A stretch of 10,606 nucleotides of DNA, from the UHGV virus genome UHGV-0084128. One strand, 5' to 3'. Positions 1,026 to 4,825 of the stretch are shown here, one piece after another (the stretch's first letter is position 1; every line of letters begins with the position of its first letter). The notes under the pieces are model-generated. The model was not told the origin of the DNA. It was given only the letters and a program-made list of their open reading frames with translations, and ran no database searches. Origin of the DNA: a virus. A program made the position numbers and the translations under genes.

Positions 1026-1226
1026 ATGCAACACGAACTACAGCCTGATTCACTGGTTGATTTGAAATTCATCATGGCTGATACTGGCTTTGGTAAAACC
1101 TTCATCTACGACCGGATTAAGTCTGGCGACCTGCCGAAAGCCAAAGTTATCCACGGACGCGCAAGATGGTTATATCGTGACCATTGTGAATTCAAAAATA
1201 AGCTCTTAAGCCGCGCCAATGGGTAA
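1026..1226 (+). CDS. xis: Excisionase / recombination directionality factor, AlpA/TorI family
   Basis: 66-aa protein MQHELQPDSLVDLKFIMADTGFGKTFIYDRIKSGDLPKAKVIHGRARWLYRDH…; winged-helix excisionase signature; SD GGAGA 8 nt upstream; sits directly upstream of attP and int. Matches my recollection of TorI of prophage KplE1. Confidence 0.85.
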   Translation: MQHELQPDSLVDLKFIMADTGFGKTFIYDRIKSGDLPKAKVIHGRARWLYRDHCEFKNKLLSRANG

Positions 1227-1242
1227 AATAGCGGGTAAAATA
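1221..1242 (+). repeat. Two direct copies of GGGTAAAATA (candidate Int arm-type or Xis binding sites), P-arm side of attP
   Basis: GGGTAAAATA-gc-GGGTAAAATA; the first copy overlaps the xis stop codon. Confidence 0.6.
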
Positions 1243-1299
1243 TTTTTCACATCTAAAAAACACCATTCCAATCAATCCCCTGCCTCGTCAAGTAGATGT

Positions 1300-1315
1300 C
1301 TGCAGGGGACACCAT
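1300..1315. other. Candidate attP core: match to the 3' terminal 15 nt of tRNA-Arg (argW), including CCA
   Basis: CTGCAGGGGACACCA(T) matches the 3' T-stem bases, acceptor 3' strand, discriminator and CCA of argW (from memory); lies between xis and int and is flanked on both sides by GGGTAAAA repeats. Confidence 0.6.
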
Positions 1316-1409
1316 TTATCAGTTCGCTACCATCCGTACCAGTCCGCAAAATCCCCTGAATATCAAGCCTTCCGTAGATTCACAGTTCGTCATGGTTCGC
1401 GTAAGATCG

Positions 1410-1439
1410 TTGACAGCCGCACTCCATGACGGGTAAAAA
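1410..1439 (+). promoter_or_regulatory. Candidate int promoter overlapping the arm-type repeats
   Basis: TTGACA (1410-1415), 18-nt spacer, TAAAAA (1434-1439); the -10 overlaps GGGTAAAA at 1431-1438, suggesting autoregulation. Weak -10, so low confidence. Confidence 0.3.
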
Positions 1440-1475
1440 GTGGATAAAATAATTTTACCCACCGGATTTTTACCC
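1431..1475. repeat. Four further copies of the GGGTAAAA motif (two direct, two inverted) at the int 5' end, P'-arm side of attP
   Basis: GGGTAAAA (1431-1438), GGATAAAA (1442-1449), TTTTACCC (1453-1460), TTTTACCC (1468-1475); the last abuts the int ATG. Confidence 0.6.
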
Positions 1476-2633
1476 ATGCTCACCGTTAAGCAGATTGAAG
1501 CAGCAAAGCCGAAAGAAAAACCATACCGCCTACTCGATGGTAATGGCCTGTACCTTTATGTCCCTGTATCCGGGAAAAAGGTATGGCAGCTTCGCTACAA
1601 GATTGACGGTAAGGAGAAAATCCTGACCGTCGGAAAATATCCGCTTATGACTTTGCAAGAGGCAAGGGATAAAGCATGGACTGCGAGGAAAGACATCTCG
1701 GTTGGCATCGATCCGGTAAAGGCGAAAAAGGCTTCGTCTAACAACAATTCATTTAGTGCGATTTACAAGGAGTGGTACGAGCACAAGAAGCAAGTCTGGT
1801 CAGTAGGCTATGCAACTGAACTTGCCAAAATGTTTGATGACGACATTTTACCCATCATCGGCGGCCTTGAAATTCAGGATATTGAGCCGATGCAACTGCT
1901 GGAAGTAATCCGCAGATTTGAAGATCGCGGCGCAATGGAGAGAGCCAACAAAGCCCGCAGAAGATGCGGCGAGGTTTTCCGTTACGCTATTGTTACTGGT
2001 AGGGCTAAATATAACCCGGCACCTGACCTTGCTGACGCCATGAAGGGATACCGCAAGAAGAACTTCCCGTTTCTTCCTGCAGACCAGATCCCGGCATTCA
2101 ACAAAGCACTGGCAACATTTTCAGGAAGTATCGTATCGCTCATTGCGACCAAAGTTTTACGCTACACAGCCCTAAGAACGAAAGAGCTTCGTTCCATGCA
2201 ATGGAAGAACGTCGATTTTGAAAACAGGATTATCACTATCGACGCCAGTGTGATGAAGGGACGCAAGATTCATGTTGTCCCGATGTCGGACCAGGTGGTT
2301 GAACTTCTCACTACGCTAAGCTCCATCACTAAACCAGTATCAGAGTTTGTTTTTGCCGGGCGCAACGATAAGAAGAAGCCAATCTGCGAGAACGCGGTAT
2401 TGCTTGTGATCAAACAAATCGGCTATGAGGGTCTGGAAAGCGGTCACGGATTCAGGCATGAATTCAGCACGATTATGAACGAGCACGAATGGCCTGCTGA
2501 TGCTATTGAAGTGCAACTGGCACATGCCAACGGCGGATCTGTGCGCGGGATTTACAACCATGCTCAGTATCTCGATAAGCGCAGAGAAATGATGCAGTGG
2601 TGGGCAGACTGGCTTGATGGGAATGTATCATAG
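1476..2633 (+). CDS. int: Tyrosine site-specific integrase, P4/IntS-like (385 aa)
   Basis: N-terminus MLTVKQIEAAKPKEKPYRLLDGNGLYLYV… typical of the P4-type integrase arm-binding domain; C-terminal catalytic motifs (…HGFRHEF…, …RGIYNHAQY…). ATG at 1476 preferred over the ORF-track GTG at 1440, giving the 385-aa length I recall for IntS. Confidence 0.95.
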   Translation: MLTVKQIEAAKPKEKPYRLLDGNGLYLYVPVSGKKVWQLRYKIDGKEKILTVGKYPLMTLQEARDKAWTARKDISVGIDPVKAKKASSNNNSFSAIYKEWYEHKKQVWSVGYATELAKMFDDDILPIIGGLEIQDIEPMQLLEVIRRFEDRGAMERANKARRRCGEVFRYAIVTGRAKYNPAPDLADAMKGYRKKNFPFLPADQIPAFNKALATFSGSIVSLIATKVLRYTALRTKELRSMQWKNVDFENRIITIDASVMKGRKIHVVPMSDQVVELLTTLSSITKPVSEFVFAGRNDKKKPICENAVLLVIKQIGYEGLESGHGFRHEFSTIMNEHEWPADAIEVQLAHANGGSVRGIYNHAQYLDKRREMMQWWADWLDGNVS

Positions 2634-2692: not shown

Positions 2693-4825
2693 TCAAACTC
2701 CGGTTGTAATTGGAACCCAGTTATTTTTGCCTATAGCCGTGCAAAGATACTGAAATCCACTCGCCGTGTTAACATACACGGCACCAGGTTTGCCTGATAT
2801 AACCCCATTTGGGGTGCCATTACCTGAAATAAAAATGAAACCATTCTGGAAGGATACACTTTGAGTGTAATCACCTTGTCCTACCTCTCTAGCCATATCT
2901 CTAATGGCGCAGGCCCACGTACCCGCATTAGATATATTAGATATATTATCACCAGACAGCGGCGCAATAGCGATCATTGGGATTGAATTATCCCCACCAT
3001 ACCCCCGAATATTTGATATTTCTCTCTGCACAATTGTATCAGTGAGATCACGAATAAGTGGTACGGTTACTGTATCCTCACATATAAAATTTCTTATACA
3101 ATAGTCATCGACGGCAGCATTAGTTTCTATGTGGATTAAACCTTCTGATGTGGTATTGGATGCCCCACTATATCCACCAGTCCATTGAATACCGTCAAAG
3201 TTTAGATATTTAGCACCGCCAGTTATATATACATTACCGCCACCACCAATAACACGAAGATTTCTTACGTACACGCCAAAGAAACCTAGAACGTAAACTG
3301 CACGAGCGTGAAGCGACATATATTTAGCGTTATTTGCGTTATCAGACGTGCAATCCTCAATCACTGAATTACGTGCTTGTTGATGTTGCCCGGAAGGTAT
3401 TGTCTGTGAGTTTCGATGTTCAATTTGGAAACTGTAAACACAATCTTTTGCATAACAACGAATGAATCTGACACTTCTGGCGGGCATTGTAGTGGAGTGA
3501 CCTTTTTGTTGAAATCCAGTGATAACATTTTCAGCATAACAATCCATTACTGTGACGTTATAACTTCCTTCATCAATTTCAATTCCGTGTTGGTTATCAT
3601 TCCATACTTGAGATGGGTCATCGTTCCATACTCGGCATCTGTTTATAACTATATCGCTGCTGTTATGTGTGGTTATAAGGTCGTCAAGTTGCGTATTTCG
3701 TGCAGACACATCTTCAACCAGAATGTTATAGCTCCCCCCAACAGCATTGTTGTCGATATTACCATCATCAAAATAGTATCCAGCACAAATATCAATTCCG
3801 TGCTGTAGTCCACGCTGAACATACACGCGCTTGATAGAGCTATTCCTTACCGTAGATAGTAGAATGGTAGTACCCTGCGTTGCATCCATCCATGTTTCAG
3901 TTGGGTTTCTCGCCCTGTTGTTAGCATCAACACCCAGGTCTTCAATACTAATATCCGTATCGTAGTTTGTCCGGAATACCTTGTACTCGTATAGTTCATT
4001 CTGGATGCAGTTTTCAGTTATCGGCATCGAAGCAAGGGCAAGGATGGTTGTTTTCAGTTTTCCTGCACCGCGCAATCTAACGTGAGATGGTACTTTCAGT
4101 GCAGAGTTAATCCCGTAAGTACCTTCAGAAAGAATAAGCTCTTTCACCGTTGCCATTTTTGCCTCTTGCAGTGCTTTGTTCAATTTATCATGATAATCCG
4201 TTACTCCATCTGGAACAATTCCGTAATAATCAGCATACACTTTATTGCATATCCTTTTCCAACGCTTTCCACCAGGCGTGACAATTATCATTCCATCATC
4301 ATCTTCTGAAGTATTATCTGTTGAATCATACTCAAAAAAACCGCCACCGATACCAACACCATCACTATGCTCAATAACATTTATTAATTGACTTTCAATT
4401 GTTGGTTCTATTAGACGTAAATCATTAATATTTTTGCATCTCCCTATGTATTTAAAACCATCCGGTCCAATTAATCTCAACTCTAATTGGTCAGGGTTAT
4501 ATTTCAGAATGTTTGGGTAGTAAAATTGTTGCACTCCATACGCATCATAAACAGCCATAGAATGGCCTTGCACGGTTACAAACTTGGCAATCTGTCCGTT
4601 ATATACAGGGTAACCAGCAGCGTTAATGATGATTGGTTGCGATACAGGAACGTGAGAGCCGTCTTCGTTCTCTACATAAACCTGAATCCGGTTTTCAGGA
4701 TTTACAGGGTCAGTGTCAATTTTACCGATATAAATTTTGCCATTGGCTACGGCTTTAAAAGAACGCGCCATAGTGAAGAGTTGCGAAGGCATCGATACGA
4801 TCACATTGGCTGTAATGTCTGTCAT
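2693..4825 (-). CDS. 9: Tailspike protein (710 aa): P22-family head-binding domain plus a distinct receptor-binding/depolymerase domain
   Basis: First ~110 aa ([59 protein letters not shown]…) match the conserved P22/Sf6/HK620 tailspike N-terminal domain; the remainder is Gly/Asn/Ser/Thr-rich as expected for a beta-helix domain; SD GGAG upstream; 710 aa equals the HK620 tailspike length as I recall it. Confidence 0.9.

Follow-up and report, generated by a model that had tools for sequence, protein, structure and literature searches.

The IntS/TorI attachment site between xis and int

Positions 1203–1499 of the 10,606-nucleotide viral DNA analysed here (the window) very probably form the attP of an IntS/TorI module targeting argW, in which six 8-mers act as Int arm-type sites laid over the int promoter. 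The repeats are the already characterised arm sites of the HK620/Sf6/KplE1 attachment site, and as such they are known, ordinary and well documented. Sequence anatomy, near-identity to these elements and conservation come from the present analysis; protein binding, the transcription start site and repression are taken from the literature on KplE1. Of 5426 complete E. coli genomes, 1901 (~35%) contain the module, mostly split into attL and attR. Recognising it permits an exact annotation of attP, core, arm sites, TorI sites and int promoter, and predicts integration at argW.

The window belongs to a P22-like podovirus and encodes ejection (DNA transfer) proteins, Ant and, on the minus strand, a 710-aa tailspike. 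Its xis-attP-int segment is matched at 96–98% by HK620, Sf6, IME10, HZ41, N7 and others; a single phage record covers at most 43% of the whole window, which is mosaic outside this segment. The two recombination genes are:

1026–1226, plus strand: xis, recombination directionality factor (RDF; TorI/HkaC orthologue, 66 aa), assigned from its open reading frame, its identity and PDB 1z4h
1476–2633, plus strand: int, tyrosine integrase (IntS orthologue, 385 aa) with an N-terminal arm-DNA-binding domain, assigned from its identity and Pfam

All residues of Xis (66/66, 100%) are identical to those of both E. coli K-12 TorI and HK620 HkaC, and the protein matches PDB 1z4h, 'Tor inhibition protein' (E=6.6e-43). 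Its identity is settled by these two matches, despite a Pfam search that returned no hit for Xis at E<=0.001. Int shares 382 of its 385 residues with K-12 IntS and carries the Pfam domains Arm-DNA-bind_3 (PF13356, residues 2–86), Phage_int_M (PF22022) and Phage_integrase (PF00589).

An hkaB-like ORF at 1219–1359, annotated in HK620 and Sf6, spans the core. It is probably not a gene: in-frame stop codons break it twice in Erwinia phage EhrS49, and integration would split the frame.

Core and extent of attP

As judged by alignment with E. coli K-12, the xis-int spacer consists of the attR and attL arms of KplE1, which meet at the 16-nt argW core. Positions 1000–1315 track attR, from torI to the core, and diverge beyond it, while positions 1300–1500 track attL, from the 3′ end of argW to intS. 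The segment common to the two alignments, where the switch takes place, is 1300–1315. Few differences separate the left arm from K-12 attR, and the stretch from the −35 box through the first int codons (1410–1500) is identical in the window, K-12, HK620 and Sf6. The corresponding features are:

1203–1499, no strand: attP extent, given by the phage-side ends of the KplE1 attR and attL substrates that recombine in vitro
1300–1315, plus strand: attP core CTGCAGGGGACACCAT, an exact match to the 3′ end of tRNA-Arg argW and to the published 16-nt KplE1 core
1254–1282, plus strand: putative IHF-like element, an A6 tract followed by AATCAATCCCCTG, with one mismatch to WATCAANNNNTTR at 1270–1282

The same 16-nt sequence was reported as the KplE1 core (PMC2951348), and the HK620 and Sf6 records annotate this segment as attP core. 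No tRNA gene was found in a search of the window, as expected since attP carries only the 16-nt 3′ end of argW.

The outer limits of the site were set with published oligonucleotides. Primer attR-IHF2 (CTCTTAAGCCGCGCCAATGG) matches positions 1203–1222 and the reverse complement of primer attL-SpeI matches 1476–1499 (PMC3509656). The attR substrate active in vitro, of 135 bp, includes both P-arm repeats (PMC3509656). Because the in vitro substrates end at 1203 and 1499, a functional attP should be contained between these two positions, with all six copies included.

Excision of KplE1 in vitro requires IHF (PMC2951348). Scanning positions 1190–1500 with the IHF consensus gave two one-mismatch matches against ~0.6 expected, a count that is not statistically significant alone. 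On its sequence, the element at 1254–1282 is suggestive only of a host-factor site.

The arm-type repeats

The 8-mer GGGTAAAA occurs exactly six times in the 10,606-base window, against 0.26 expected from dinucleotide-preserving shuffles. Five of these exact copies fall within 1221–1478, on the plus strand at 1221, 1233 and 1431 and on the minus strand at 1453 and 1468. The remaining copy of this interval is a one-mismatch variant, GGATAAAA, on the plus strand at 1442–1449. The six sites are:

1221–1228, plus strand: putative arm-type repeat GGGTAAAA of the P arm (attR side); includes the xis stop; identical in K-12 attR, HK620 and Sf6; 7/8 positions invariant in Klebsiella and Erwinia phages
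1233–1240, plus strand: putative arm-type repeat GGGTAAAA of the P arm; 12 bp past the first copy; 7/8 invariant, with GAGTAAAA in Klebsiella phages
1431–1438, plus strand: arm-type site P′1 (GGGTAAAA); overlaps the −10 box; 8/8 invariant
1442–1449, plus strand: arm-type site P′2 (variant GGATAAAA); includes the inferred transcription start; 5/8 invariant
1453–1460, minus strand: arm-type site P′3, inverted (TTTTACCC on the plus strand); 7/8 invariant
1468–1475, minus strand: arm-type site P′4, inverted (TTTTACCC on the plus strand); abuts the int ATG; 8/8 invariant

A preliminary description of this DNA had counted six copies of the repeat. Six sites are indeed present, but only five are exact, the 1442 copy carrying its one mismatch. 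The arrangement proposed there, with two direct copies at the end of xis, two direct and two inverted copies before the int ATG, and an argW-like core between the two groups, is borne out by the positions and strands read from the sequence and by the location of CTGCAGGGGACACCAT. The repeats had also been described as overlapping the xis stop, the int promoter and the int start. This holds for the stop codon TAA (1224–1226), which lies inside the first repeat, and for the −10 box, but not for the int ATG (1476–1478), which the repeat at 1468–1475 directly adjoins without overlap. The second repeat begins 7 nt past the xis stop, a codon that the two P-arm sites straddle.

The suggestion that the 8-mers are Int arm-type sites is in agreement with PMC2951348, in which the TAAA sites P′1–P′4 are assigned to IntS on the identical attL. 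Three repeat blocks, the same as those of the window, are annotated as attP repeat_region in the HK620 record AF335538. We infer, from motif identity, conservation and the HK620 annotation, that the copies at 1221 and 1233 are Int sites as well. Earlier work of Panis et al., in J Biol Chem in 2007 and Virology in 2010, reportedly footprinted attR-side sites.

The further exact copy of GGGTAAAA lies outside 1221–1478, on the minus strand at 1846–1853 within int. It is annotated as an attP repeat in HK620, yet HK620 itself has TTTTACCT at that place and Klebsiella phage Chronis has TTCTGCCG. This copy most likely arose by chance in coding sequence.

Conservation was assessed in a six-sequence alignment with four Klebsiella and Erwinia phages, which are 76–78% identical over the region. 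These phages share the xis-spacer-int layout, and the positions and orientations of the repeats are kept. Within the six 8-mers 42 of 48 columns are invariant, versus 53 of 160 in the remaining spacer (Fisher p=1e-11; six-sequence alignment). The 1442 copy is the most variable: E. coli phages have GGATAAAA at this place, the other phages GAGTAAAA or GAGT-AAA, and the consensus of the repeat across relatives is about G-R-R-T-A-A-A. The GGG/CCC part of the motif is conserved equally with the A-tract. The core, the five GTTCG-type pentamers and the −35 box likewise stand out as conserved, and the P-arm segment TCAA..CCCCTGC, at the IHF-like element, is largely kept in the divergent phages.

The TorI sites

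On the KplE1 attL, five TorI sites were reported in two blocks, with GTTCG, GATCG and GTCCG as the mutated pentamers (PMC2951348), and TorI binding to attL is also described in PMC3509656. Conversion of the published coordinates places both blocks downstream of the core and upstream of the −35 box:

1318–1345, plus strand: TorI binding block I1;2, with GTTCG at 1322–1326 and GTCCG at 1342–1346; converted from 2464409–2464436
1381–1408, plus strand: TorI binding block I3;4;5, with GTTCG at 1385–1389, GTTCG at 1395–1399 and GATCG at 1405–1409; converted from 2464472–2464499

All five pentamers were found at the converted coordinates, and the last one abuts the −35 box. In the divergent phages, 5/5 and 4/5 positions are conserved in the pentamers of I1;2 and 5/5, 5/5 and 3/5 in those of I3;4;5. 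This GTTCG-type repeat had been missed in the preliminary description.

The 8-mers themselves had been proposed as possible Xis sites, in addition to or in place of Int sites. Short direct repeats spaced by roughly one helical turn are common as RDF sites, and the members of the pairs 1221/1233 and 1431/1442 lie 11–12 bp from each other. A reading of the 8-mers as excisionase (Xis/TorI) sites, not Int sites, is nevertheless highly improbable. The repeat used by TorI on the identical attL is the separate GTTCG/GTCCG/GATCG one, and TorI repression requires I4 and I5, which adjoin the −35 box, as judged by the loss of repression upon mutation of I4/I5 (PMC2951348). The same study assigns the TAAA-containing sites to IntS. 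Moreover, the GTTCG-type pentamers are independently conserved in the divergent phages.

The int promoter and its repression

The promoter lies downstream of the TorI blocks, and its upstream element is:

1410–1415, plus strand: −35 box TTGACA of the int promoter (PintS); identical to K-12 and identified in PMC2951348; 6/6 positions invariant in divergent phages

An 18-nt spacer separates it from the −10 box TAAAAA (1434–1439), which overlaps the repeat at 1431–1438. Both boxes, already pointed out in the preliminary description at 1410 and 1434, were confirmed, and they are the same as those of the K-12 intS promoter (TTGACA / TAaAAa), which sits within the KplE1 attL (PMC2951348). An int promoter, pX, is annotated in the Sf6 record, and a 'prophage excision' promoter in that of HK620. 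The pair TTGACA-18-TAAAAA was not listed by a simple sigma-70 scan, which demands a T at −10 position 6, where TAAAAA has an A. The scan's own ATGACG-16-AATAAT (1426–1453) was rejected, its −10 lying downstream of the start mapped in KplE1.

This start was located by primer extension at a T and an A, positions 2464536/7 (PMC2951348). We converted it with a K-12-to-window offset of 2463091, derived from the cloned fragment that begins at 2464344, or −223 from the ATG, which puts the ATG at 2464567. The start then falls on T1445/A1446 of the window, 7 nt past the −10 box and inside the GGATAAAA copy.

In KplE1, the attL carries the four IntS arm-type sites P′1–P′4, all with TAAA, of which P′1 overlaps the −10 box, and an attL-gfp fusion was repressed ~5-fold by IntS and ~5-fold by TorI (PMC2951348). 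Single mutants of P′2, P′3 or P′4 still showed 4.0–5.2-fold repression by IntS, and mutations in P′1 were inseparable from inactivation of the promoter through its −10 box (PMC2951348). The site of autorepression is for these reasons still only inferred, even in the literature. Excision in vitro has a narrow optimum, 0.8–1.2 uM, and excess IntS inhibits it (PMC2951348).

The agreement with KplE1 IntS/TorI autoregulation noted in the preliminary description is upheld by the near-identical proteins, the identical attL and the published ~5-fold repression. Given the sequence identity to the tested KplE1 attL, Int and Xis binding and repression of the int promoter can be expected in the phage of the window.

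Could the repeats instead be promoter or leader features, such as A-tracts, an UP-like element or a leader RNA hairpin, that take no part in recombination? In favour of this are their A/T-rich sequence, their overlap with the −10 box and the start, and the inverted pairs among them. This possibility is even more remote than that of excisionase sites, as two of the copies are found 200 bp farther upstream, where xis ends and on the other side of the core from the promoter, and the GGG/CCC part of the motif is conserved as much as the A-tract. A transcript starting at 1445/1446 would also leave P′1 out of the RNA. An RNA hairpin formed by the inverted copies in the int leader was rejected, since the predicted fold of the leader 1445–1510 (−3.9 kcal/mol, z=+0.92) is no more stable than that of shuffles. 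Functionless clustering by chance or composition is the least credible reading of all: the exact copy at 1846–1853 in int is not conserved and looks random, but six copies were reached in none of the 200 shuffles (0/200), and the repeats keep position and orientation at 76–78% identity while the flanking spacer diverges, a conservation that already refutes it.

Proposed mode of action

We propose that the N-terminal domains of Int bind the two sites of the P arm and the four of the P′ arm, with the catalytic domains at the core. Int molecules would then bridge the arm sites to the core 1300–1315 in both integration and excision. IHF would bend the arms and, for excision, a cooperative TorI filament on the GTTCG-type repeat would also help. 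The int gene points away from the core and its promoter lies within the P′ arm. Int bound at P′1, and probably at the whole P′ cluster, would cover the −10 box and start region and block RNA polymerase, while TorI at I4/I5 would cover the −35 box and likewise block the promoter. The Int level would be kept low and narrow because Int and TorI both block the int promoter in the P′ arm. The IntS/TorI module is in this respect a textbook-level case, with an int promoter inside the attachment site and recombination proteins that double as repressors.

To our knowledge, the published regulation of int in this module was measured solely on attL. No terminator was predicted between xis and int in the window, and xis, with its upstream promoter, lies directly upstream of int. 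The full attP intasome could conceivably act as a roadblock to xis-to-int read-through and repress int more tightly than attL does, although we regard this as rather unlikely. In such a complex, IHF would loop the DNA so that P1 and P2 come to lie on the core and the P′ sites. If this were true, the supply of Int would differ between the free-phage and prophage states.

Comparison with known systems

The site shows the features of the argW-targeting IntS/TorI module (KplE1/HK620/Sf6/CUS-3): the core, an IntS-type Int, a TorI-type winged-helix RDF, four P′ sites and five TorI sites. KplE1 (CPS-53) of E. coli K-12 has the same 16-nt core, an identical TorI and a 99% identical IntS. From the −35 box to the ATG the two are identical, with the four P′ copies, and the two attR-side copies and the five TorI sites are the same. 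In contrast to KplE1, the two halves are joined as attP in the phage of the window, and xis immediately precedes int on the same strand; in the KplE1 prophage, torI and intS are 10 kb apart. The two also differ by a few substitutions, among them 1329, 1397 and 1399 in the spacer and 1285–1288 on the P arm close to the core.

HK620 (AF335538) and Sf6 (AF547987) share the gene order xis (hkaC and gene 18, respectively)-attP-int, and the region is 96–97% identical. The records of these phages annotate an attP core and an int promoter ('prophage excision' and pX) that are the same as those of the window.

The integrase of satellite phage P4 likewise binds at comparable positions and represses its own promoter, and integrase levels are lowered by the RDF, too. 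For the P4 RDF, Vis, the proposed target is the int mRNA, in contrast to TorI, which acts on DNA adjoining the −35 box.

The lambda attP shares with the present site a heterobivalent tyrosine integrase, arm-type sites on both arms, a separate RDF repeat, IHF dependence and a length of ~250–300 bp. It carries the arm sites P1, P2 and P′1–P′3, the Xis sites X1, X1.5 and X2, and the IHF sites H1, H2 and H′. The lambda-type complex layout is found in the window as repeats on both arms and a distinct GTTCG repeat, the IHF-like element being weak evidence. There are six arm sites in the phage of the window versus five in lambda, and motif and orientations differ. The RDF sites of the window's phage are on the int-proximal (attL) arm, in contrast to lambda. 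Finally, lambda int is transcribed from PI/PL without such autoregulation, whereas the int gene of the window has its own promoter inside the arm, an arrangement in which Int and the RDF would repress int directly.

A second family of repeats in attP

Between the attP core and the -35 box of the int promoter, a second repeat family was found at 1318-1345 and 1381-1408, composed of three GTTCG copies, one GTCCG and one GATCG. These pentamers match I1-I5, the five TorI (Xis) sites described in PMC2951348, and alignment showed that they are conserved in the Klebsiella and Erwinia phages. The preliminary description, which dealt with the six 8-mers, does not include this family.

The other features considered in and around the module are the following.

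960-975: terminator-like hairpin followed by a T run, directly upstream of xis (region 960-1019)
982-994: TTGC-N5-TTGC, after the hairpin
1219-1359, + strand: 46-codon ORF whose ATG start overlaps the first repeat and which spans the attP core
1254-1282: IHF-like element, an A6 tract and then AATCAATCCCCTG, between the P-arm repeats (8-mers at 1221 and 1233) and the core
1846-1853, - strand: seventh copy of GGGTAAAA, within int
2693-4825, - strand: tailspike, 710 aa

The 1254-1282 element, in which AATCAATCCCCTG differs from WATCAANNNNTTR by a single mismatch, resembles an IHF site and is a candidate for one. It includes CCCCTGC, which is invariant across the divergent phages and whose reverse complement, GCAGGGG, occurs in the core. 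At 1293-1314, within the conserved core region, an imperfect inverted repeat, GATGTC / GACACC, lies on either side of TGCAGGG; judged by sequence and alignment, the two halves of the repeat resemble Int half-sites of the core type, separated by a 7-bp overlap region.

The HK620 record carries an annotated attP repeat at the spot matching the 8-mer copy within int. This copy is not conserved, reading TTTTACCT in HK620 and TTCTGCCG in Klebsiella phage Chronis, and is probably a chance match within coding sequence. The ORF across the core, annotated as hkaB in HK620 and as gene 17 in Sf6, is interrupted by two in-frame stop codons in the Erwinia phage EhrS49 and would be cut in two on integration; it is probably not a real gene.

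Possible transcription into int

In HK620, the TTGC-N5-TTGC element is annotated as a cII-binding site and a 'phage integration' promoter. Because no terminator was predicted between xis and int, this promoter could, in the attP state, allow read-through across xis into int.

Tailspike

Residues 1 to ~110-130 match many tailspike families and the remainder only a few; the best of these few is phrog_8280, a tailspike that degrades colanic acid, with a match spanning residues 1-438. No close match to the tailspike part of the window was present in the phage collection, and this is therefore a mosaic receptor-binding module.

Uninterrupted attP in E. coli genomes

The torI-attP-intS arrangement was found uninterrupted, as opposed to split into attL and attR, in 17 complete E. 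coli genomes; examples are the hits in NZ_CP158430.1 (121542-121838) and NZ_CP081786.1 (1138-1434). Some of these copies are carried by plasmid-sized or phage-sized replicons (39 kb and 179 kb), and episomal or tandem copies are therefore suggested.
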